In this document: piece by piece, positions 1,983 through 49,699 of the stretch
Layout of the letters: each line of letters begins with the position of its first letter
Numbering within the stretch: position 1 is the first letter of the stretch
Source of the DNA: an uncultured delta proteobacterium
GTDB lineage: Bacteria; Desulfobacterota; Binatia; UBA9968
Assembly (NCBI GenBank): GCA_963727625.1
Contig: CAVSHR010000004.1
Coordinates: forward strand, 1,312,001-1,376,000
Length of the DNA: 64,000 bases
Direction of reading: 5' to 3'
Translations under genes and position numbers: made by a program
The notes under the pieces: generated by a model
Told to the model about the DNA's origin: nothing
The model's input: the letters and a program-made list of their open reading frames with translations, nothing else
The model's database searches: none

Positions 1983-2232
1983 ACGAAAGCTGACAGTAAG
2001 TACCCGTCCTGTTCCAGTTCACAGTTCATAGCAGCGAAGCACGGACAGGGTCTTGAACGTTGCTGTCAAATTGAAATTCCCCAGGACAATATAGATTCAG
2101 AGCAACCGCCGCCGCAGCGATTCTTACCGATCTCGTAGGCCAAACGTTTTTGACAAGGCCCGAAAAACAATCCGCTTTTCTCGGAGACCCCGCCAACCAG
2201 CCTAACAAGATTGCGTCTGATCTGGAGAAAGC

Positions 2233-3090
2233 TCAGCGCGAAATTTTTCCCGCGAACTTCTCGATCAAAGCGTTAAAGCGCTCGGGCTCGTCGACGAACA
2301 AGGCGTGGCCCGCTTTCTTGAACAGTTCAACTTGGGTCGACGGGCGATGCTTTTTGAAGTTGGCCGCTTGCTGCTCAAATTGCCGGGTGACGGCGTAGAG
2401 CAGAGGCTTGTCGAAACCGAGGGCAATCTGTTTCCAATGTCTGCGTGCGAAAGGATAGTCCAGCAGCGCCAGACTGTCTTCCAGCCTCATTCGCGTGGCG
2501 TCGCGCGTCAAGCGACGCAACTCTACCTCATCAAGCCGCGTGGCGAAAATGGATCGCACGAAATCGGTTATGGTTTTGTCCCGGTCTTGGCGCAGACACT
2601 GCTTGAAATTTCCGCCCGGCGCGGGCGCCGGCTCCTCACCCACCGAGCTATCGACCAAGACCAAACCGGCCATCGTTGCGGCACCGAACATGTGCACCAT
2701 TTGCAGCGATTCGATGGCGCCCAAGGACCAGCCGATCAGCAGAACCTTTGATCGTGGCAACAAAAATTCGTGGATATCGGTCGCCCGCCGCTCCGCGGTG
2801 TAGCCGGCCGTGGGAATTTCAGATTCACCCTGGCCGCGCGGATCCAAGGCGAGCGTCTCGTAGCGCCGGCTGAAAACTTCCAGCTGTCTACGCCAAATCG
2901 TCGCCGGCATCGACCATCCGGGAACTAAAACGATGGCCAACTTTTCTTTGCCGGCGAAATCCTGTCCGGCTTCCAGGAAGGAGAGCGTTACGCCGTCGCT
3001 GGTCTGAAAGGATCGTCGGGTAATTTCACTGGCGGTGCAAGGGCTTGCCATGATCAGCAACGCCGCGGCCAAGCACAAACGGCGCGCCAT
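2233..3090 (-). CDS. Alpha/beta hydrolase (non-heme chloroperoxidase-like), signal peptide
   Basis: VPGW oxyanion motif, DPRGQGES, GWSLG nucleophile elbow, AGHALF. Confidence 0.85.
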   Translation of the reverse strand: MARRLCLAAALLIMASPCTASEITRRSFQTSDGVTLSFLEAGQDFAGKEKLAIVLVPGWSMPATIWRRQLEVFSRRYETLALDPRGQGESEIPTAGYTAERRATDIHEFLLPRSKVLLIGWSLGAIESLQMVHMFGAATMAGLVLVDSSVGEEPAPAPGGNFKQCLRQDRDKTITDFVRSIFATRLDEVELRRLTRDATRMRLEDSLALLDYPFARRHWKQIALGFDKPLLYAVTRQFEQQAANFKKHRPSTQVELFKKAGHALFVDEPERFNALIEKFAGKISR

Positions 3091-3102
3091 GAATTCACTG
3101 AG

Positions 3103-4260
3103 CTAGCGGTGCGCGGCGATGAGCCCGGACTGCTGGCCGCGCCAATGGTAGCCGAAGGGAAACGGCAACGGAGCCTGTTCCTTCCGGGCGCTGTAAGCGG
3201 TTTCGAGATCTTTTTGATAACCATAGGTCATCGGCCTGATCGGCTTATTGTAGCGGCCGTAGAGCTTTACCTGCCAAGGGGTGTGTTTGATGTAACGGTA
3301 CGGGATGCCGGTGTCGTCTTGCACCAATACATCGGCGGCATCCAACAGCATAGCGCGGGTTTTGGAGAACTGCTGATCGTGTAGCAGATAAGAAGCCGAT
3401 TTGATCAACACCGTGGCCGGCTTGTACTGGCTCGCCCAGTTTAAAAAGTCCGGATAAGATTCCAGGGCCTTGTCCGACGCATCGAGCGAGACATAGGAGA
3501 GTTGCTGCGTAGTCGAACCGTTCGGATTGCCAAACTCGATGCGCACGGCGCGCATTCTCACCCGCGGCCGTTTCGCGTCGGGCGAATCGAAGCCATGAGT
3601 AATCTCCGGGAAAAGATCGAGAGGTTCGATCCTGATGATGCGCCGATTCATCAGCGCCATCATGGTCGCCATCACCGGGACGGTGCCGCGGATCCACGGT
3701 GTGCTCAACTGCTTGCTCATGTACGAAGTGATAAAATAGTTGCGTTCGAAAATATCGCGAAACGCGCTGCGTACGTCTTGCAGCAGCTCGGCGAACTGCA
3801 CGGGCGTCACCGACTCCAAATCCGGCAGCGTTCCGGGCCGCTCCAGGCTGAAGAATACATAGCGCCCATGCTCGGGGAAAAACGTATAGGCGTTCAGAAA
3901 ATCCGGACCGCTGAAAGGATAGAGCAGGGTCTTTTTAGGCGCGCCGGCAATCTTGATCTCCTGACTGCGCCACGACTCCATGGTTTGAATGCGATGGTGC
4001 ACTTGATTCCAGCTGGAGGTCATCCACTGCTGGTGTTCCTTGAACGCATCGGTTTCGACTAGCCGCTTTAATGCCGGCTCCGGCGGATTGGGAGCGACCC
4101 CCGCCAGGATTTGCGCTGTCGCCGTAGCGCGCCGGTTAAACTCCATGCCGTTGGCCGACAGAGCATTAACCGGACCAGAAGCCAGAAGGAGCGTCAAAAC
4201 GAGCGCGCTCATCAACCTCAGGAAATCAAATCGTTCCATAAATTGTAAGCTATATTTCAT
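3103..4260 (-). CDS. Hypothetical exported protein
   Basis: 385-aa ORF with N-terminal hydrophobic segment and motif-like blocks LLYPFSGPDF, KSASYLLH, QDDTGIPY, LPFPFGY; 12 bp upstream of the hydrolase. Confidence 0.7.
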   Translation of the reverse strand: MKYSLQFMERFDFLRLMSALVLTLLLASGPVNALSANGMEFNRRATATAQILAGVAPNPPEPALKRLVETDAFKEHQQWMTSSWNQVHHRIQTMESWRSQEIKIAGAPKKTLLYPFSGPDFLNAYTFFPEHGRYVFFSLERPGTLPDLESVTPVQFAELLQDVRSAFRDIFERNYFITSYMSKQLSTPWIRGTVPVMATMMALMNRRIIRIEPLDLFPEITHGFDSPDAKRPRVRMRAVRIEFGNPNGSTTQQLSYVSLDASDKALESYPDFLNWASQYKPATVLIKSASYLLHDQQFSKTRAMLLDAADVLVQDDTGIPYRYIKHTPWQVKLYGRYNKPIRPMTYGYQKDLETAYSARKEQAPLPFPFGYHWRGQQSGLIAAHR

Positions 4261-4677
4261 AGACTTGGCACGTAAAACTAAACCTTAGATAGAATTCTCA
4301 AATCGCGCTCCTCAGCCTAAACGATCTCCTTTCAGGGACTTTGACGAACAGAGTAGCATTTTCTAAGCTACAAGTAATATCATTTGCAAGGGGTCAATGG
4401 CTCACCGGCCGGCACTGTCTTGCCTCCGGGTCGGTAACGATCCCGGCGAATGAAGCGCCAGCGGCAAATGCCTTTTCATGAGAAACAGATTGAGATAAGA
4501 GAAAAAACACCGCGACAATACAAACCTAAGGAAGGATTGAGTCACGTGGTGCGTGTATTTGTTTCGGGCGGATCTCTAAATCGTGCGGCTGTGTGTATTC
4601 GCTTCATGCCTGTGGCTCGGCAAGCCCGCCGCCGGCAACATCACTAACGTCAACGACCACGCCAAAAGGAGAACAAC

Positions 4678-5388
4678 TTGTCAGGTTGGAAAGCTCGCAT
4701 CGGCTATTTATCACCGTCGGTTTTTGAAACACCGTCGGACTGGGATTTAATCTTGCCCAAAGGCTTCACCCTTGTCGCTTCGGGCCTCAACGTTCAAGCC
4801 CACACGGAAGCGGAGTTCAATAAAGCCATCGACGCGCTGGGCGCCGGCCTGGGAATTTTCGCCGCCGAAGAATGCGACGCCATTCTCATGGGCGGCATCA
4901 CTCTCGGCACGCAGCGCGGTTACGCCGCCGAGCAGGAAGTCGTCGCCAAACTTTCCCGTCAAGTCGGCTTGCCGGTCAGCACCGCCATGAGCGCGACGGT
5001 GGAGGCGTTCAAACATTTGCGCGTGCGCAGCACGGTGATCGCCACCGCATACAAAGAATCCATCAATCAAGCCGTTAAAAAATATTACGAGGACGGCGGC
5101 TTAAAAGTCCTGGAAATCAAGGGGCTGGAAGTTTCCAAACCGGTGGATCAAGTCAAGCTTCCTGACTACGCGTCGTATAAAGTCGCTCGCGAACTATTTC
5201 GCCATCATCCCGAGGTCGACAGCCTGTTGATTCAGGGCCGATGGCGGTCGGTCGCCTATGTTCAAGAGCTGGAAGACGACACCTTAAAACCGGTGATCTC
5301 CAGTACTGCGGCGTCGCTCTGGTGGGTCATGAACGCTCTCGGCATGAAACCACCCATCGAAGGTTACGGCAAACTGTTGCACGGCTAA
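4678..5388 (+). CDS. Maleate cis-trans isomerase / arylmalonate decarboxylase family (Asp/Glu racemase fold)
   Basis: GWKARIGYLSPS N-terminus, ATAY, KPVISS, GYGKLL C-terminus; RBS AAGGAG before TTG. Confidence 0.8.
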   Translation: MSGWKARIGYLSPSVFETPSDWDLILPKGFTLVASGLNVQAHTEAEFNKAIDALGAGLGIFAAEECDAILMGGITLGTQRGYAAEQEVVAKLSRQVGLPVSTAMSATVEAFKHLRVRSTVIATAYKESINQAVKKYYEDGGLKVLEIKGLEVSKPVDQVKLPDYASYKVARELFRHHPEVDSLLIQGRWRSVAYVQELEDDTLKPVISSTAASLWWVMNALGMKPPIEGYGKLLHG

Positions 5389-5507: not shown

Positions 5508-5878
5508 ATTAACGCCAACGCGTTATTACTGTGATCTTATTATTTTTTCACTGCAGCCCGCTTACCAACGATTCGGCCAGCGCTTGTTTCGAACACACCT
5601 GCCGCCGGGGTTGTTTCGAGACTGCTTTGAGGAAGCCCAACCTACTGATTGACCCGCTCCCGGGTTCGCGCCAAGCGGCGCCGAGATTGAGGGCTTGATT
5701 CACACAGCTCGATTGCCAACGGCTAGCTCGATCGAACTGCTGGCATCCGCCGCCAGCGGGCTTGAATTGCCCGGTGGACTATCTTCTCCCGTCATAAAAC
5801 CTCCATCACGGAAAAGCTCCAGACAGGCGCGCTCTGCTGCCGCTCTTCCCACCCCGCTTGTACTACGGAGCTAGCCAA

Positions 5879-10274: not shown

Positions 10275-10940
10275 GTGAGCGAAAAACTTTCCGCGGTAGA
10301 GATCGCCAAAACCTCCGCAATCACTCTCGGCCATTATAATCAGCACGCCGAGAGTTTCTGGGCCGGCACCCGCAACCACGATGTCGGCCAAAACCGCGAA
10401 GCGCTGCTGCAAAACCTGCGTGGCGCCGGGCCGTTTCGCATCCTCGACTTCGGCTGCGGTCCCGGCCGCGACCTGAAAATCTTTCGCGATTTCGGCCACG
10501 AGGCGATCGGCCTCGAAGGGGCCCAACGCTTTGTCGAATTGGCGCGCAGCTACAGCGGCTGCGAGGTTTGGCAGCAAGATTTTCTAAAGCTTGACCTGCC
10601 CGCGGAATATTTTGACGGCATCTTCGCCAACGCTTCGCTTTTCCACGTGCCAAGCCAGGAATTGCCGCGAGTGCTGAGAGAACTTTGGGCGACCCTGAAA
10701 CCGGACGGTGTTCTGTTCAGCTCCAATCCACGCGGCGAAAACCAAGACGGTTGGGACGGCGAGCGCTACGGCTGCTACCATAATTGGGACAGCTGGCGGC
10801 AGCTGGTCATCGCCGCGGGCTTTGCCGAGATCCGCCACTACTATCGACCATCCGGCTTGCCGCGCGAGCAGCAGCCGTGGCTCGCGTCTGTCTGGAGAAA
10901 GCCTTATGAGAAGAACGATCTCTCATTGCATTTGAGATGA
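10275..10940 (+). CDS. Class I SAM-dependent methyltransferase
   Basis: ILDFGCGPGRD, FDGIFANASLFH. Confidence 0.9.
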   Translation: MSEKLSAVEIAKTSAITLGHYNQHAESFWAGTRNHDVGQNREALLQNLRGAGPFRILDFGCGPGRDLKIFRDFGHEAIGLEGAQRFVELARSYSGCEVWQQDFLKLDLPAEYFDGIFANASLFHVPSQELPRVLRELWATLKPDGVLFSSNPRGENQDGWDGERYGCYHNWDSWRQLVIAAGFAEIRHYYRPSGLPREQQPWLASVWRKPYEKNDLSLHLR

Positions 10941-43470: not shown

Positions 43471-43547
43471 CGCGGGGTGGAGCAGTCTGGTAGCTCGCAA
43501 GGCTCATAACCTTGAGGTCCCGGGTTCAAATCCCGGCCCCGCAACCA
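43471..43547 (+). tRNA. tRNA-fMet (CAT), initiator
   Basis: 77-nt cloverleaf, anticodon arm CAAGG-CTCATAA-CCTTG, GTTCAAATC T-loop, encoded CCA, C1xA72 mismatch typical of bacterial initiators. Confidence 0.95.
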
Positions 43548-44607
43548 ATTCTTTCAAGGCTTTATCAACCAACGGTTCGAAAACGGTTTGATCGAGCTTC
43601 AGTCCTAGGGTCCCGCAGTAGTCCGCCTGTATCATCGCCAACGACGTTCCGCAGTATTGAGCTACGGAAAGCGGATTTTCACCCCGCTTGATTGCTTCCG
43701 TTATGAACGTGTGCCGAGTCGCGTAGAATTTTCGATGCCTAATCCCGATTTTCTTTAACGCACCGCCCCAATTGTGCTCACTCCATTTCCTCGCGTTCAT
43801 CGGTTCCCCGTTCTTGTTCACAAAGAGATGCTTAAGCCCGAGCTGGCACGAAGGAAGGATTTCCAGAACCCTTAAAACGGGCTTCCCGAACTGAATCGTC
43901 CTAGCACTGCCAAAGGTTTTAGGCCCCGACTCGCTGCCCATATATCTCGATTTGCTTATCGCTATCGTCTGCCGCTCCAAGTCTACATCGGCCCAGGCAA
44001 GCGCGGAGGCTTCAGACGGTCGCATTCCGGTATGGAACAACGTAAAGACCCAAGGGAAATAAAAGAAGTCGCTCGCAGCCCAATACGCCACAATCCTGTC
44101 CCTTTCTTCTGCCGTGAACGGATCAGGCTTGGCCCGCTGGTTGGATGGCCATCGAATATCGATAAATGGATCTCTCCCCATCAACTCCTCAAGTTCTGCC
44201 CTAGCATCTCGATAAAGCGCTCTAAATGAGCCGTCAATGACATTCCTCACAGTTTTGACACTAAGACCTTGCCGTAACAGCTGCATCCTGAATTCGGTCA
44301 ATTCGCCCGTACCAATGGCCAACAGACGCCTACTTTTGAATTTGGGCAGAATATACGCCCGAAAATGCTGGCTGTAGTCCCGAACCCGCGACCGTCTAAA
44401 CAAGGGCTCAATCTTGGTATTGATCCACGAATCGAAGTACTCCTGGACCGTCGGAGTTGGGGTTAATCCGTACGTGCCCTGGATGTACTGCTCAAGACGA
44501 TGCTGGGCTAATCCCTTTTTCGTCGTCTTAAGCGACTTCATCAGGCTTCCGTCGATCAGGTACCACATAGAGCCGCGGTCCTTACGTTGTTTTAGGTGTG
44601 GGGGCAA
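43504..44607 (-). CDS. Tyrosine recombinase/integrase (phage-type, not IntI); 3' end overlaps the tRNA
   Basis: HTGMRPSEA, PKT, FYATRHTF (YxxRH variant of HxxRH), terminal catalytic Tyr in MIQADY. The last codons (LVAGPGFEPGTSRL) are antisense tRNA sequence. Confidence 0.92.
   Translation of the reverse strand: MPPHLKQRKDRGSMWYLIDGSLMKSLKTTKKGLAQHRLEQYIQGTYGLTPTPTVQEYFDSWINTKIEPLFRRSRVRDYSQHFRAYILPKFKSRRLLAIGTGELTEFRMQLLRQGLSVKTVRNVIDGSFRALYRDARAELEELMGRDPFIDIRWPSNQRAKPDPFTAEERDRIVAYWAASDFFYFPWVFTLFHTGMRPSEASALAWADVDLERQTIAISKSRYMGSESGPKTFGSARTIQFGKPVLRVLEILPSCQLGLKHLFVNKNGEPMNARKWSEHNWGGALKKIGIRHRKFYATRHTFITEAIKRGENPLSVAQYCGTSLAMIQADYCGTLGLKLDQTVFEPLVDKALKELVAGPGFEPGTSRL
43525..43548 (+). 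repeat. attL core
   Basis: TTCAAATCCCGGCCCCGCAACCAA, identical to 49046-49069. Confidence 0.9.
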
Positions 44608-44803
44608 TTACGGCCTCCTGAAAGGGAATCTGTAATCCGTCTACAACGCGGTAAAGGGCATCGATCCGTCGCGGAGCTTCGCCCCGCAATATCTTAGCCA
44701 GGGTTTTGTTATTAACTCCACAAAGGGCACAAACGTCAACGACCTTAAGCTGCTTGGCGGCCATCGCCTGAAGGATGCGGGGAACGTTGATCGAGACGTT
44801 CAT
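44582..44803 (-). CDS. Small HTH (XRE/Cro-like) protein, possible regulator or excisionase
   Basis: 73 aa, 'VVDVCALCGVNNKTLAKILRG' HTH pattern; overlaps the integrase start. Confidence 0.7.
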   Translation of the reverse strand: MNVSINVPRILQAMAAKQLKVVDVCALCGVNNKTLAKILRGEAPRRIDALYRVVDGLQIPFQEAVIAPTPKTT

Positions 44804-44819
44804 AGACCCAGCCTAAAGG

Positions 44820-45086
44820 CTAACTAGCCTTTTTCCACCCCGTGACTATTTTCCTCAGTCCAGGTTCCCGCAGTTTTTCCATGGTCTCTTGGACGGTATC
44901 AACCACACCCTTTGCAAGGCTTTTTAGGCCATAGCGATTGACGGTTATCGCTAAATACAACAACGTGGCCGCCCGCAGGAATTCGCTAACTTTCATGTCA
45001 AGTTTTTCGGCAGCCTCTTCAAAGGCTTTTTTATCCTGCGCCGACACTCTAACCATGATCACTTCACTGCGGTCTTGTTTTTCCAT
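44820..45086 (-). CDS. Ribbon-helix-helix DNA-binding protein
   Basis: RSEVIMVRVSAQDKKAFEEAAEKLDMKVSEFLR strand-helix-helix pattern; RBS GAGGAGG. Confidence 0.75.
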   Translation of the reverse strand: MEKQDRSEVIMVRVSAQDKKAFEEAAEKLDMKVSEFLRAATLLYLAITVNRYGLKSLAKGVVDTVQETMEKLREPGLRKIVTGWKKAS

Positions 45087-45241
45087 AGCGCCTCCTCACG
45101 AGTAGATTGTGTATATCATTATAGCTCAGAGTATGTCAAGCGCTACTTTGACCGTATATAACAAGTGAACCGGAAAATAACCCGCCTATAGTTAGGGAGA
45201 TAACCCGCCGCCCCGGTCGGCTTTTGCCGGAGAAGTTTACG

Positions 45242-45270
45242 TTGACAAAACGGGCTAGTTACACGATATT
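45242..45270 (+). promoter_or_regulatory. Pc-like sigma70 promoter facing the cassette array
   Basis: TTGACA-N17-GATATT, about 90 bp upstream of the first GTTRRRY core. Confidence 0.55.
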
Positions 45271-45324
45271 TTAAACGATTCCGATTCTATCGTCGAAACC
45301 GCCGCAGGAGATAAGCCGACCGGG

Positions 45325-45362
45325 ATTTCCCGCGGCTACTGCGGGTCACTTATTAGTTAGGC
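45325..45362 (+). other. Putative attI-like site / first cassette junction
   Basis: Core GTTAGGC at 45356-45362 complements the R'' of cassette 1; no standard attC precedes it. Confidence 0.5.
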
Positions 45363-45370
45363 CAACAACA

Positions 45371-46089
45371 ATGGTTTATTCCATCCCAATTGCCATCATA
45401 CTTTTCGGAATCATTCTCATTGCTCCGACGGTCGACGAGTCAAGGTACGCAGATCCAAGTTGGCGTTGGGAATTCGAGACCGCGGACGTGTCGCGACCTT
45501 TCCGGCGATCTGTCCCGGAAATTCTACGAAGCACAGGCTAACAATTTGACTCCAGCCGCCATACGCTCGGACCATGGTGCCGCGGTAATCAGTCTCGGAG
45601 TGTCGATTGCTGCTCTCTTTCTGATGCTTCGACTTCGAACGTTTCGAGATCTGTTTCATTTAGGGACACTAGCAACTCGGCGAGGAATGTTCTGGATGGC
45701 AACCGCAGCATGGTGGGGTTGGGTTCCGGCACAGTTGCTGTGGCTGCAATATACACTTGAGCGTGGAGACTATCCGTGGTGGGCGGACAATATTGCAATC
45801 CCAATCGCAGAGGAGCGTGTTCTTTTGTGTGCTTGGTTTTCCCTTTGTGCTATGCGGTTGGTATCTCTCAACGCGCGGAGTGAGACTGCCGGTCGCCGTT
45901 TTACAAGTTCCACGGGGCTCCAAGGGTGTGGTGGCCACGGCGTTTTTAATGGTACTCCTTTCATGGTTTGTGCTCGCAGGCGTTCGGGCCTTTGGGGAAG
46001 GTGACGTGTTCACAATTCCAGTATCGGTTGTCGGGGTTTATGCAAGTGTTGCTCTCTGGGCAGCGGCGTGTGCACCGCGAGTGGCCTAA
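45371..46089 (+). pseudogene. Cassette 1: hypothetical membrane protein, two frameshifts
   Basis: ATG 9 bp after the core site. Hydrophobic pieces in three frames (MVYSIPIAIILFGIILIA / ...ERGDYPWWADNIAIP / FFCVLGFPF...APRVA*); the stop lies within R''. Confidence 0.65.
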
Positions 46090-46164
46090 CAAACGGCTTG
46101 AAACGGATCGTCGGACCGGCTCGCTGCGCTCGCTGGCCTTGTCCGTTCAGCCGTAGCGTTAGAT
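46084..46164 (+). other. attC site 1 (81 bp)
   Basis: GCCTAAC...GTTAGAT; CGGCTTGAAACGGA pairs with TCCGTTCAGCCG with extrahelical bases. Confidence 0.88.
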
Positions 46165-46178
46165 TTCAAAGGAAGCTT

Positions 46179-46803
46179 ATGACCAACTACTTTTGTCAAC
46201 TCGAGAATCAACTTCCGGCCATACAGAGCTTATCTTCTTCTGAAGGAGTAAAGGGCTTTTTTGGCCAGGAAGTGCTCCGCTTCCACTCAATTGCCGGGAC
46301 CTTGCTTGCCAACTTTTGCCTCGATGGTGGCGCCAGCGTTGATGAGCGCTACATTACGCACATCCTTGCCCGATCGTTATTGGAAAACTATTTCTGGCTC
46401 ATCTACCTGTTCGATGATCCCGCCCAAGCAGAAATTCGATATCAGCACCTGACGAACTCCTTCAAACGGGATTACTTGAAGCTAATGAATGAAGACCGGC
46501 TCCCCCAGAAGGATCAGCTCGAACCCGCAGATCCGGCTCTGGGCGAGCTGGCAGCGCGCACCCGATGTAAACAGCATGCTCGCGCAAGTGACGAACGACT
46601 ACGGAGACCGCCTTAATTACCTGTATTTCATTTACCGGATTACCAGCTTCGATACGCACGGTAAGAATTTAGGCACAGTTCTCCAGACCGTGTTCGGCAA
46701 AACATGCAATTTTCCGGTGCTTGATCTCAAGCACGTTATTGAGCTTGTTGCCAATCAATACCTTGTTATCCTCGATGGGCTCCGAAATGATCATGAAATC
46801 TAA
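46179..46803 (+). pseudogene. Cassette 2: DUF5677/HEPN-like helical protein, one frameshift near 46535
   Basis: LARSLLENY block, and YRITSFDTHG (R-X6-H) block in the second frame; the stop lies within R''. Confidence 0.6.
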
Positions 46804-46882
46804 CCGCCGCTTGAGCCGACGCCGAGCGTTGTGAGTTAATGAAGCTTTTCTGCTGTAGCGGCTCAGCGGCATGGCGTTAGCT
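46798..46882 (+). other. attC site 2 (85 bp)
   Basis: ATCTAAC...GTTAGCT; CCGCTTGAGCCG pairs with CGGCTCAGCGG. Confidence 0.85.
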
Positions 46883-46890
46883 AGCACTGC

Positions 46891-47587
46891 ATGATCACAT
46901 CGAATGTCATTCATCGCGTCTTTCGCATCCGGCACGGAGCTTCGGAGGCGACGGCGTTCACGTTAGAACTAGACGAGAGGGAGTATCTCGTCACGGCGAA
47001 GCACGTGGTCAAAGACTTGACGAACGAGCAAACGATCGACGTTTTCGGAAATGGAGCTTGGCAGCCAAGGGAAGCGACGCTTGTCGGTCACGCGGTTGGA
47101 GACCGCGACATTTCGGTCCTGGCTTTTAAGACCGTTCTGACGCCTCCGGGCCTGCCGATGCCGGCGACAAGCAAGGGTGTGATCTATGGTCAAGATGTGT
47201 TCTTTCTCGGATTCCCCTACGGCTTTGTCGGTCATTACGCATTCGGTCCGGCAAGGCTTTCCGCTACCTTTTGTGAAGAAGGCAATCGTCTCATTGCTCG
47301 ACCGAGACACCTTTCTGCTTGATGGTCACAATAACCCAGGCTTCTCGGGTGGGCCGGTCGTTTTCAGGGAAGCCGGAAAAGTAGACCTGAATGTCTTTGC
47401 AGTCGTTTCAGGATTCCAGGCAGTTAACGAGCCGGTCTACGTTGGTGACAGTCCCGTATACGCCGGCGCTGGCGAGCCCGTTGTCTTCAGGTACAACACC
47501 GGAATCATCGTAACGTGGAGTGTCGATTTCGCTGTGGAACTCATCAAGGCGAACCCGATCGGCGCGATGAGAAACGGTGCTGGCTAA
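46891..47587 (+). pseudogene. Cassette 3: trypsin-like serine protease, one frameshift near 47250
   Basis: LVTAKHVV, DISVL, FLGFPYG in frame 1; NNPGFSGGPV in frame 2; the stop lies within R''. Confidence 0.75.
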
Positions 47588-47631
47588 CCAATGGGGTGAG
47601 ACCGGCAGGCAGCTCACCCAGAACGTTATGC
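47582..47631 (+). other. attC site 3 (50 bp, unusually short)
   Basis: GGCTAAC...GTTATGC; TGGGGTGAG pairs with CTCACCCA leaving one bulged base. Confidence 0.7.
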
Positions 47632-47889
47632 CGTAACCACGCAAGGCCGTGCCGTATGTTCCAGCGTGCCTTACGCCATTCACAGCGACGTTCACGTGCC
47701 TTGCAGTGTTCTGCCACCTTGAACCTTTTTTCGGAGATCCGAAAACCCCGAACGCTAGTAAGGGGTTTTCGAAGGGATTCAAGTCATGAGCCCCAGTGCC
47801 ACGCCGGAGCAGCGCGCCGGAATCCGCCGCCCTGCTCCGCCTGTCAATGAACACGAACGGAGAAAAGCGGATTAGTCGACTTTGTAATG

Positions 47890-48096
47890 TCACAACCCCG
47901 CTCCAGGAGACATTGAGCGAAACTCATTGACGATGCCCGGTGACCCCATCATGAGAGTCACTTCACAACACACACAGTACATTTCCAGTTCGCCCTCAAA
48001 GTCCGGTATCAATTGAACCCTAATCTTGTGGCCGCGACTCCCGTGACTTACTAGACTACGAAATGAGCCGTTGAACATCTTTTGAACTTTCACCAC
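47890..48096 (-). CDS. Small hypothetical protein of the element
   Basis: 68 aa with GAGGTG RBS and a CVCC motif, downstream of rep on the same strand. Confidence 0.5.
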   Translation of the reverse strand: MVKVQKMFNGSFRSLVSHGSRGHKIRVQLIPDFEGELEMYCVCCEVTLMMGSPGIVNEFRSMSPGAGL

Positions 48097-48201
48097 TCAC
48101 CTCTCGAAATTTTCTTCCACATTTGCCTTTAAACGAACGATCTCACGTTAACCCTTGTCTGAACCCTCGCCCTTTACAGAGGCGCACCACTATTGTAAAG
48201 C

Positions 48202-48894
48202 TCAGAACAGCTCAACTATTTGACGCTCTCGTACATCGAGCAGCCTTCCTCCAAACACCGTCGAGCCCTCATTCAATAACTCTTCCCACGCAACAAGCAG
48301 ATCTTGAAAAGTGACCTCTGGCACTTCACGATCAAACTTGTAAGCGTAATGCACGTCATGGCGAACCAATCTCAACATGCGAACCATAAACTTCCAGCCT
48401 TTACCTATGGCAAATCTTGCACGCTTCCAGCTCCAGGACATCCTCACCAGTGCCCCCCGCTGATCGGCCAGGTATTGAAGAGCGAAATATCTCCCAACGC
48501 GACGAATTGAATTCTTCCCCAGATTCATCCGCTGAATATAAACAATGTACGCTCCGTGAATGACGTCCCACTGTTCGGAAAGCCAACCTTGATCGATGAT
48601 GAACGTCCGATCGCCAGCCCAGGCCCAAACCATGTGGAGAACTCCATTGCCCTCCGAGGTTTCCACCACGAACGTTTCGACTCCTTTGTAACCGAGGTCA
48701 CGTTCAACTCGCCGGCGAAGCTCTTGGAGATGGCGACGCAGGAGATGAGCCGGACCATTATCAGCAGTGGTTAGATCGATCCTCGAAATCTGACAATTAC
48801 GAGATTTTGCTTCGTAGCACCAACTTATAAGCCGGTTAAATACTCGCTTCTGTTGTTTTGTCCACGGCTTAAAATCACCCTTAGAATTCACCAC
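48202..48894 (-). CDS. Putative HUH-superfamily rolling-circle replication initiator
   Basis: Ordered motif 1 (RIDLTT), motif 2 (E..EGNGVLHMVW, only one His) and motif 3 (RYFALQYL), plus a 'WLSEQW' block; RBS AAGGAGG. Confidence 0.62.
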   Translation of the reverse strand: MVNSKGDFKPWTKQQKRVFNRLISWCYEAKSRNCQISRIDLTTADNGPAHLLRRHLQELRRRVERDLGYKGVETFVVETSEGNGVLHMVWAWAGDRTFIIDQGWLSEQWDVIHGAYIVYIQRMNLGKNSIRRVGRYFALQYLADQRGALVRMSWSWKRARFAIGKGWKFMVRMLRLVRHDVHYAYKFDREVPEVTFQDLLVAWEELLNEGSTVFGGRLLDVRERQIVELF

Positions 48895-49045
48895 AAAACC
48901 TCCTTTGCACGACAGCCAACGGTTTGATTTTGGTTAGATCAAGGGTAGCCATAGGCAGCCTTTAGGCGCTTTTCCGCTTTCGTAACTTGTTGATTTGTTG
49001 AGAACTTAGCAGTTGCAGACTGTTAACAGCAGACGCTTCGGCGGA

Positions 49046-49069
49046 TTCAAATCCCGGCCCCGCAACCAA
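49046..49069 (+). repeat. attR core
   Basis: TTCAAATCCCGGCCCCGCAACCAA, a duplicate of the tRNA 3' end. Confidence 0.9.
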
Positions 49070-49275
49070 CTTTTCCGAATAGTTAGAATACCCGCTGTGC
49101 CGATTTTGAGCGATGTTGAGCCCCTGCCGCGCGCAATAGTTCGCCTCGATCATCGCCACGCTGGTTCCTACGTAATCTGCAATCGCCTTTAGATTGTGCC
49201 CTGCCCTTACCAGCTCGGTGATGGTCGTATGCCGGCAAGCGTAGAATTTGCGGTGCCGGATGCCGAGCTTTTTCA
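49070..49275 (-). pseudogene. C-terminal relic of a second, related tyrosine integrase
   Basis: LKKLGIRHRKFYACRHTTITE...GTSVAMIEANYC vs the intact LKKIGIRHRKFYATRHTFITE...GTSLAMIQADYC. Confidence 0.85.
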
Positions 49276-49327
49276 GTTGAGAACTTAGCAGTTGCAGACT
49301 GTTAACAGCAGACGCTTCGGCGGATTC

Positions 49328-49699
49328 GTCGAGGACGTTCATCGAACGGTCGACGAACGAGAGGAGACACGGACTGTAAGGATCGCGATGGGAGATGTCG
49401 TTCAGGAGATTGCGCGGGGGAGCCGGAGTGTCCGAGAGTGTGGTGCTCAACAAGGGACGTGGTCGGCTTGGGAGCCCCGGCTCAGGGCCGAGGCGGCGTA
49501 TGTGGGGCGGGAACTGGGAGGAATTAGTTTGACGCAGGCTGCGCAGTATTTGGGGCGAGATCTGAGCACGATGTCGTTAGCGCTAACGCGTTTGGAGAAT
49601 GAGCTGGGAAGCGACGGCGAAAAGCGCAAGCGCCTGGACTCTCTTTGCGTCCGGCTGCGACAAGGGAGAAGGCGCAAATATCAAATAAGCAAAGCCTGA
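49328..49699 (+). pseudogene. C-terminal fragment of a REP-associated tyrosine transposase (RAYT) with DnaA-C-like HTH
   Basis: FVEDV...RAEAAYVGRELGGISLTQAAQYLGRDLSTMS...QISKA*; no HUH N-terminal domain. Confidence 0.55.

Follow-up and report, generated by a model that had tools for sequence, protein, structure and literature searches.

An attC cassette array without intI in a small tRNA-Met-integrated Rep element of an uncultured delta proteobacterium: a probable off-target insertion by the host integron integrase

The 64,000-nt stretch of DNA analysed here (the window, positions 1312001-1376000 of contig C4 in genome G000 of an uncultured delta proteobacterium, assembly GCA_963727625.1) carries at 43525-49069 a small element that is integrated at a tRNA-Met gene and encloses three gene cassettes bounded by attC recombination sites. 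Positions without a prefix are window coordinates; C2, C4, C9 and C11 are contigs of the same genome, and L-numbers denote the DNA stretches compared, including L011 (which holds a second copy of the element), L012 (on C4), L017 (on C9) and L018 (on C2). It is proposed that the array is an attC cluster without an integron integrase (CALIN), generated when the integron integrase (IntI) of the host inserted cassettes off target into a small integrative Rep element. This would be a new example of a known process, and we put the probability of this reading at about 0.72. The array has the look of a chance insertion, and the element does not look like a carrier made for cassettes.

Three attC sites are present on the plus strand: attC 1 (46084-46164, 81 nt), attC 2 (46798-46882, 85 nt) and attC 3 (47582-47631, 50 nt), the last being the weakest. 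Because an Rfam scan of the window matched tRNA only and no attC family, a covariance model, R1, was built from seven attC sites elsewhere in the genome, taken from the array beside intI and from scattered positions; all window sites and the chromosomal twin of attC 1 were excluded from its training, and only the R and L boxes were paired. R1 was applied with its filters off to both strands of the entire 64 kb and scored the three sites at 76.9 bits (E 4e-19), 37.7 bits (E 4e-8) and 17.9 bits (E 0.016), respectively; the next-best match, fourth of 22 rows at E <=10, reached 10 bits (E 2.7). At genome scale 16 sites pass E 0.1, attC 1 and attC 2 among them, and attC 2 is 82% like a chromosomal attC at C4:338727-338801. 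A model-free scan combining the pattern NNNTAAC ... GTTANNN with a stem test returned exactly these three sites in 64 kb and 23 matches in 392,829 bases of related loci. The three attC-bounded cassettes described in an initial annotation of this DNA are thus borne out by a model trained on other loci and by a scan that uses no model. Two other scanners were discarded, the first as too strict, since it missed known sites, and a relaxed version as unspecific (50 matches on the array strand versus 40 on the opposite strand). Applied to an E. coli plasmid, in the region of its class 1 integron, R1 gave nothing above 8 bits; that record annotates no attC and is not a clean control.

The R''/R' boxes of the three sites are GCCTAAC/GTTAGAT, ATCTAAC/GTTAGCT and GGCTAAC/GTTATGC, and they pair both in the predicted folds and in the covariance model alignments. 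The L''/L' arms are ACGGCT-T-GAA-A-CGGA versus TCCGTTCAGCCGT in attC 1, GCCGCT-T-GAGCCG versus CGGCTCAGCGGC in attC 2, and TGGG-G-TGAG versus CTCACCCA in attC 3. Extrahelical bases on the L'' arm set the orientation of an attC site. At every site here the L'' arm is longer than the L' arm by one or two bases, which orients all three on the plus strand. With three attC sites within 1.55 kb and the nearest intI about 0.98 Mb away, the array falls under the definition of a CALIN (at least two attC sites, no intI nearby); a complete or mobile integron would have intI with an adjacent attI and the promoter Pc, and the element has no intI.

The intI gene of this genome lies at C4:370957-371898, on the same contig as the element, and is intact. 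Its product scores 467.8 bits against TIGR02249 (cut-off 265), a cut-off passed in none of 14 control genomes, and is 51.5% identical to IntI1; within the genus, IntI above the cut-off occurs in 9 of 31 genomes, including G000 and the unpublished G005, or in 8 of 30 if G005 is left aside. In the chromosomal integron (C4:364115-372081 of G000; L012 10925-12082 and downstream) intI is co-oriented with the cassettes, and the array starts after its 3' end with approximately seven attC sites within 7 kb. Scattered attC sites are also found at 338 kb, 376 kb, 762 kb and 789-792 kb of C4, at 111 kb and 274 kb of C2 and at 66 kb of C11; a 30-codon fragment of IntI lies beside those at C4:789-792 kb.

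Cassette 1 (45357-46158, plus strand) links the element to this integron. Blastn of the element against the genome aligned 45356-46173 with C4:369970-369152 at 98.5% identity; the identity runs from G|TTAGGCC to ...AGCGTT, is bounded by the R' box of the site before it and by the R' box of the cassette itself, and the flanks on either side are unrelated. The chromosomal twin comes second in the array that follows intI, the first place being held by a methyltransferase cassette, and has an intact 239-aa ORF (open reading frame) for a membrane protein. The element copy is broken: of the seven changes that separate it from the twin, five are substitutions, one is a deletion of 2 nt and one an insertion of 1 nt; it reads in three frames, and its indels are not homopolymer slips. 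An exact cassette unit that occurs twice in one genome, with one copy beside intI, is a signature of IntI-mediated movement, and such a G|TT-bounded unit shared with a true integron was found for cassette 1 only. Given the intact intI and the boundary-exact copy, the action of IntI in trans, which the initial annotation had put forward as borrowing from the host, is close to shown; that IntI catalysed the insertion is what we infer from it. The transfer of cassette 1 was most likely from the chromosome to the element.

The other two cassettes are likewise of ordinary cassette form, each cassette having one ORF co-oriented with the array, and the frames end at 46089, 46803 and 47587, in or at R''. 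Cassette 2 (46159-46876, plus strand) encodes a DUF5677 protein and is frameshifted at about 46540-46550: the alignment with an intact 207-aa homologue (83% identity) covers 46179-46550 in one frame and continues in a different frame over 46540-46800, and the second ORF has no Pfam match. Cassette 3 (46877-47625, plus strand) encodes a trypsin-like serine protease and is frameshifted at about 47220-47227, residues 1-110 of an intact 232-aa homologue from genome G057 aligning in one frame and residues 112-227 in another. For this protease cassette PADLOC yielded only weak LmuA and RT-protease matches, and the remaining cargo had none. Relative to intact relatives, then, every one of the three cassette genes is frameshifted, so the array is not under selection now. 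It may be decaying, or else the loss of function may have been favoured by selection, given that a promoter precedes the genes; sequencing error might also account for the frameshifts, though not by homopolymer slips in cassette 1.

The array sits immediately downstream of a promoter and leader on the plus strand (45175-45356, about 180 nt). The promoter, TTGACA-17-GATATT at 45242-45270, agrees with the consensus at 10 of 12 positions; the region holds two promoter-like sites, a count not above that of shuffled sequences (1.8). The plus-strand promoter noted in the initial annotation is nevertheless seen, and its promoter-leader is conserved at two other loci of the genome, both intergenic, with 72-74% similarity: C9:503063-503230 (L017 3064-3231) and C2:191742-191867 (L018 2743-2868). 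The left junction of the array, ...ACTTATTAG|TTAGGCC at 45356-45357 (plus strand), is a secondary, attG-like site, and it is here that the identity with the chromosomal cassette starts. The left boundary of the array follows the G of a GTT (ACTTATTAG|TT), and the array ends in the R' box of attC 3, GTTATGC, a hybrid right junction with the target. The cassette-free C9 paralogue parallels the leader as far as ACTTAATAG|TTGAT and then diverges exactly at the junction; since the paralogue is continuous up to this point, the insertion took place at a GTT within a resident promoter-leader. Seven of the nine nucleotides to the left of the crossover match the chromosomal attI (ACTTATTAG versus ACTTAATGG), a post hoc comparison that is suggestive. 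Beyond the array, between the convergent cargo and backbone transcripts, lies a strong hairpin (47718-47783; -18.6 kcal/mol, z -4.1, none of 200 shuffles as good) that is likely a two-way terminator.

The promoter-leader is of some interest in itself. The module (about 45175-45358) occurs at three genome loci before unrelated genes and contains an iterated ATAACCCGCC motif; its C2 copy precedes a gene for a 262-aa alpha/beta hydrolase. A portable promoter, a small RNA and the end of an element are candidate identities for it.

These features suggest the following sequence of events. An element of approximately 5.5 kb targets the 3' end of tRNA-Met, with genes for a ribbon-helix-helix (RHH) protein, a helix-turn-helix (HTH) protein and an integrase at one end and a pRQ7-type Rep at the other, and between the two ends a cargo slot equipped with an outward promoter of its own and a likely terminator in the form of a hairpin. 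The host IntI, encoded 0.98 Mb away, would have inserted cassettes at the GTT of ACTTATTAG|TT, about 90 nt past the resident promoter, in an attC x attG reaction, leaving a three-cassette array without intI. The element would still be able to excise and replicate. In the excised circle the int end would be joined to the 150-nt stretch upstream of rep, placing RHH, HTH, int and rep on one strand; with rep directly downstream of int, Rep would be made mainly from the circular form, and replication would be switched on in that form only.

The target of the element is a tRNA-Met (CAT) gene at 43471-43547 on the plus strand (ARAGORN; Rfam RF00005, 63.9 bits), the 3' end of which constitutes attL. 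The attL core (43525-43548) and the attR core (49046-49069), located by repeat search and by reading of the sequence, share the same 24 nt (TTCAAATCCC...AACCAA), of which the attL copy is the final 23 nt of tRNA-Met plus one extra base. They lie within a 33-nt repeat pair (43521-43553 and 49042-49074) that is 91% alike at a spacing of 5521 bp, the identical run being 24 nt by base-by-base reading. Next to the tRNA gene is int (43504-44607, minus strand), encoding a 367-aa tyrosine integrase (Phage_integrase, E 7.6e-12; PHROG 1 integrase, E 7e-41), whose last codons are the complement of the tRNA-Met 3' end. An integrase adjoining tRNA-Met and a duplicate of the tRNA 3' end at the far side are the marks of an element inserted by a tRNA-targeting tyrosine recombinase, which supports the view of a tRNA-integrated island with its own integrase. 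The GC content falls from about 0.57 in the flanks to 0.48-0.55 within the element.

The start of int is overlapped by a gene for a small 73-aa HTH protein (44582-44803, minus strand), a candidate regulator or excisionase with only sub-threshold HTH matches (HTH_26, E 0.002, below the cut-off). It is followed by an 88-aa RHH protein of the NikA-like, relaxosome-accessory type (44820-45086, minus strand; PF21983, 31.7 bits, cut-off 27; weak MobA/MbpA matches). RHH, HTH and int may form an operon read from a minus-strand promoter-like site at 45296-45268, upstream of the three genes. On the other side of the cargo, a 68-aa ORF without a family, taken from the ORF list (47890-48096, minus strand), straddles the boundary between cargo and backbone at 48107, which makes its reality doubtful. 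The genes int, RHH, HTH and rep and the adjacent chromosomal genes are all open reading frames. The initial annotation's description of att repeats 5521 bp apart around minus-strand int, HTH, RHH, small ORF and Rep-like genes agrees with the repeat search, the ORFs and the family assignments. Searches of the element ORFs against Pfam, NCBIfam and PHROGs matched no intI, conjugation, capsid or transposase family, in agreement with the absence of such genes from that description, and no FtsK-like Tra translocase; the element's own int reaches 14.9 bits against the IntI family TIGR02249 (E 0.012, cut-off 265). No recognised relaxase family and no oriT were found in the element. Rep could double as a relaxase, and the NikA-like RHH protein hints at mobilisation by a helper, machinery of the element's own for transfer between cells not being visible. 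A 10-nt palindrome-like word, GCCTAAAGGC / GCCTTTAGGC, occurs at 44811-44820, just downstream of the RHH gene, and at 48958-48967, upstream of rep; it is retained in copy 2 of the element (L011, about 10627-10637) and may be a binding site of the RHH or the HTH protein.

The gene rep (48202-48894, minus strand) encodes a 230-aa protein that matches nothing in Pfam, NCBIfam or PHROGs and is homologous to the rolling-circle Rep of the Thermotoga plasmids pRKU1 and pRQ7. In tblastn against plasmids it matched only the Rep of 846-bp Thermotoga plasmids (pRKU1, E 3e-5, 71% coverage), and against phages it had no match. Blastp gave 29% identity over 164 aa to a Thermotoga miniplasmid Rep, within an overall range of 28-29%, and comparison of profiles with hhalign gave a probability of 99.65% (E 4e-25, 183 columns); a sequence-profile search of the PDB returned nothing meaningful (best E 0.041). 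The plasmid pRQ7 is reported to replicate by rolling circle. The AlphaFold model of Rep (predicted local distance difference test score, pLDDT, 89; predicted template modelling score, pTM, 0.85) has as its top structural match the Rep encoded by SIRV1 ORF119 (Z 11.3, root-mean-square deviation 3.1, 114 of 116 residues aligned), a protein described as a superfamily II Rep, followed by AAV5 Rep (Z 7.6) and MVM NS1 (Z 7.2); Helitron, RAYT, vientovirus and geminivirus Reps follow at Z 5.9-6.5, intermixed with generic ferredoxin-like folds. The model shows the beta-alpha-beta-beta-alpha-beta core resembling the RNA-recognition motif, with a helix after it, that defines the fold of HUH (histidine-hydrophobic-histidine) endonucleases. 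Three motifs were located, DLTT (residues 39-42), LHMVW (86-90) and Y136/Y141, the first and third of which are conserved. Both tyrosines are invariant in 35 sequences and are predicted to lie on a helix, residues 127-142, as expected for catalytic tyrosines. In the second motif H87 is invariant, and position 89 is V, I or L in 35 of the 35 aligned members, where pRKU1 Rep has H-M-H. Of the HUH assignment in the initial annotation, therefore, the fold and the homology to a rolling-circle plasmid Rep hold; the canonical second histidine is absent, so the protein is termed HUH-fold and Rep-like in its working here and not a canonical HUH member. No origin hairpin was detected upstream of rep, where folding is no better than in shuffled sequences (z +1.0 to +1.4).

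Related elements show what else the slot can hold. A second copy in the same genome (copy 2, C2:524234-529723) encodes int, RHH, HTH and Rep proteins with 86%, 72%, 71% and 95% amino-acid identity, respectively; it lies at a non-tRNA site where only CAAATC is shared. Its slot contains a gene for an 858-aa protein with HD-CE and HATPase domains (L011 6960-9536), on the strand opposite to rep, and its homology with the backbone described here stops at 45174. A third version is represented by L031 and L032, which have the same backbone at the same tRNA-Met with syntenic Nudix and aminotransferase neighbours, and by L033, in which Rep and the stretch beyond match L031/L032 up to the end of the contig, before the rest of the element; the slot in these three holds a gene for a 242-aa membrane protein. 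The slots of all three backbone versions begin at the same backbone boundary (...GTGAACCG), and each has its own TTGACA promoter. With filters off, R1 found no attC in copy 2 or in the L031/L032/L033 element (best score 10.7 bits). A scanner match behind the L032 cargo gene (5777-5831) was rejected, as its fold has z +1.1, it lacks an L box and it is not among the R1 matches listed, the lowest of which scores 7.3 bits. As far as these three backbone versions go, a cassette array is one cargo among several and not a property of the family, the other two having no attC and holding ordinary genes. Such cargo can be defence-like, as in copy 2 and in L059, where the slot (2154-5012) holds a gene for a 952-aa SIR2 and STAND NTPase protein, again on the strand opposite to rep.

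Several observations weigh against, or restrict, the proposed insertion by the host IntI. attC 3 is marginal: it reaches E 0.016 in the window and is missing from the sites that pass when the whole genome is scanned. Blastn found no twin of cassettes 2 and 3 in the present chromosomal array or anywhere else in the assembly, so the array was not simply copied from today's integron. Of 61 genomes searched for the cassette 1 protein, only that of the window has it, and the direction of transfer of cassette 1 would need an outgroup to be polarised. R1 is lineage-specific, so its silence on distant Rep loci is uninformative and the comparison comes down to two other backbone versions. Finally, the HUH motif of Rep is degenerate, reading H87-M-V89 with the second histidine replaced.

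An alternative that gives the element a larger role is that promoter, pseudo-attI and terminator evolved as a landing pad for the host IntI, small tRNA-integrating elements with a pRQ7-type Rep serving as escape vehicles by which cassettes of sedentary integrons are carried between cells: an integrase-less mobile integron platform. On this account IntI would load cassettes at the pseudo-attI in the slot, the element would excise, replicate and move, and the integron of the next host would unload them, such elements occurring in Nitrospira-like, verrucomicrobial and archaeal genomes. The slot is indeed made up of a promoter, a 90-nt leader, a GTT, some 90 nt and a terminator hairpin with almost nothing else, the element has integration and replication genes of its own, cassettes 2 and 3 are missing from the present array of the host as expected for an outside origin, and the crossover resembles attI at seven of nine positions. 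That resemblance is post hoc, however; the same promoter-leader stands before unrelated genes outside such elements, the other two backbone versions hold ordinary genes with their own promoters and no attC, every cassette gene is broken, and Rep is found in none of 60 related genomes. We regard this account as improbable, for the present element as for such elements at large. The class of cassette shuttles put forward in the initial annotation fails as well: that annotation had itself proposed to judge the class by whether related backbones carry cassettes, and copy 2 and the L031/L032/L033 element carry none, while all three genes of the one array found are frameshifted.

The opposite direction of transfer, in which the element brought the cassettes and the chromosomal integron took cassette 1 from it at attI, is unlikely. 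It would fit the position of the twin, second in its array and near attI where new cassettes enter, the lack of cassettes 2 and 3 on the chromosome, and the absence of the cassette 1 protein from all 60 relatives. The attC sites of all three cassettes nevertheless belong to the genome's own attC sequence family, which argues for a local origin, and the element would still have needed an IntI somewhere to gain its cassettes; the copy in the element is the degraded one, which does not polarise the transfer. Loss of intI and attI from a complete integron on the element is the classical explanation for CALINs in the integron literature, yet a genome search with TIGR02249 found no intI fragment in or beside the element, whose own int gave only E 0.012, and the left junction lies in a leader continuous with a cassette-free paralogue up to the GTT, so we consider a remnant integron highly improbable. 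A repeat-driven mis-join in the assembly has equally little to recommend it. Cassette 1 is a 0.8-kb repeat in the genome and the contamination of the assembly is 6.3%, but the two junctions coincide exactly with G|TT recombination points and do not lie at arbitrary places in the repeat, seven changes distinguish the copy from its chromosomal twin, cassettes 2 and 3 occur nowhere else in the assembly and backbone sequence continues on either side. Insertion by the host IntI at a resident GTT remains the reading we prefer.

Several known systems share features with this element. Islands of the SGI1 type resemble it in being integrase-bearing and non-conjugative, with replication and mobilisation genes and the cassettes of a class 1 integron; SGI1 differs in its size of approximately 40 kb, its complete integron with intI1 and its recognised mobilisation functions, the element here having a 5.5-kb backbone and no intI. 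Actinomycete elements of the pSAM2 type comprise int, xis, a rolling-circle replication (RCR) Rep and an FtsK-like Tra, are integrated in tRNA genes and replicate after excision. The combination of an integrase, a small DNA-binding protein and a rolling-circle Rep in a tRNA gene is common to both, whereas the element described here has no Tra or FtsK-like gene, an unrelated Rep family and a host of a different phylum. The 846-bp Thermotoga miniplasmids pRQ7, pRKU1 and pMC24 have a homologous Rep (28-29% identity); they consist of Rep alone, do not integrate and retain the full H-M-H in place of H-M-V. In the provirus SNJ2 the ends that carry int and rep are brought together on excision, and the replication operon exists only in the circle (PMC13107129). 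The gene order int ... attP ... rep on one strand would act alike in our element, as judged from gene order only; SNJ2 differs from it in being an archaeal virus and in having a Rep that is Rep_trans-like (PMC13107129).

For the insertion itself the closest precedent is the finding that IntI inserts cassettes at GWT sites in genomes, the expressed ones adjoining resident promoters (Loot et al., bioRxiv 10.1101/2022.09.11.507474, also cited as Nat Microbiol 2024;9:228 in PMC11389934). The same work states that cassettes inserted at GWT remain excisable and that both small CALINs and sites with a single attC (lone attC sites without an integron-integrase, SALINs) may arise in this way, and gives RSF1010 and pRAY, which carry the aadB cassette, as natural examples of secondary-site insertion (10.1101/2022.09.11.507474). 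As described there, SALINs and small CALINs share with our array the attC cassettes at a G(W)T that belongs to neither attI nor attC, just past a resident promoter with no intI nearby, and are movable again in trans; here, in contrast, the target is a small integrative Rep element and not the chromosome proper, three cassettes are involved, a cassette twin and intI can be identified in the same genome, and all genes are frameshifted. RSF1010 and pRAY exist as free plasmids, each with one resistance cassette that is functional, as opposed to three broken non-resistance cassettes on a chromosomally integrated element of an environmental bacterium. That integrons mobilise CALINs in trans is the view taken in an earlier essay. 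The process is thus a published one, both as GWT insertion and as mobilisation of CALINs in trans; what may be undescribed is the backbone family, since neither this backbone nor a CALIN carried by such an element is described in the open-access literature searched. Supplementary site lists and tables of integron papers may already contain comparable CALINs.

Sedentary chromosomal integrons are large gene pools from which the exit of cassettes is poorly documented. The case described here is a natural one in which the same cassette is present in the resident integron and, boundary-exact, at a promoter-proximal GTT of a small element with int and Rep. It is evidence from nature for the attC x attG route and for a path by which cassettes might pass from a sedentary integron to a mobile vehicle, with the caution, from the broken genes and the cassette-free sister elements, that the insertion event was incidental. 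The backbone, which combines a Rep related to that of the smallest known plasmids, an integrase by a tRNA gene and a slot often filled with defence-like genes, may deserve a study of its own.

Relatives of Rep are widely scattered. Of 330 candidates, 71 were retained at E <=0.001, and none of these has a Pfam domain; 387 relatives were found in metagenome contigs. Ten Rep loci in reference genomes come from Verrucomicrobia, Nitrospira lenta, Bathyarchaeia and Thermoplasmatota; the window's own genome is the only one with Rep among the 61 searched. A tyrosine recombinase gene lies beside a tRNA gene, 2.5-6 kb from rep, in L021, L059, L065, L069 and L079, and a serine recombinase gene is placed likewise in L076. 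The metagenome contig L089 (1-3675) contains three head-to-tail units of 1505-1508 nt, each with rep only, that are 96-97% alike over the compared stretches and 81% alike for one shifted stretch of the third copy; it looks like a concatemer of a free 1.5-kb mini-replicon of the same Rep family. Terminal overlaps marking circular contigs were found in none of 14 small contigs. At the C9 locus that carries the promoter-leader paralogue, L017 5348-7378 (C9:505347-507377) encodes a tyrosine recombinase followed by an IS91-family Y2 transposase, and a copy of this recombinase with identical scores lies at C4:1404391-1405194, 28 kb past the end of the window.

Adjacent to the right end of the element is a scar on the minus strand (49075-49327), delimited by repeat search, ORFs and blastn. 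Its first part (49075-49275, about 200 bp) is a 3' integrase fragment 71-72% like the 3' end of int, and its second part (49276-49327) is an exact 52-nt direct repeat of the right end of the element (48997-49048), so that the 52-nt repeats bracket attR and the 200-bp integrase fragment. As no att copy follows the second 52-nt repeat, the outer junction of the older element is gone. We read the scar as the remnant of an earlier tandem resident of the same tRNA-Met site, which has been used repeatedly by elements. Just beyond the element, a plus-strand ORF of 135 aa (49292-49699) may belong to another remnant; the C-terminal part of its product resembles what we take to be a DnaA-C-like HTH.

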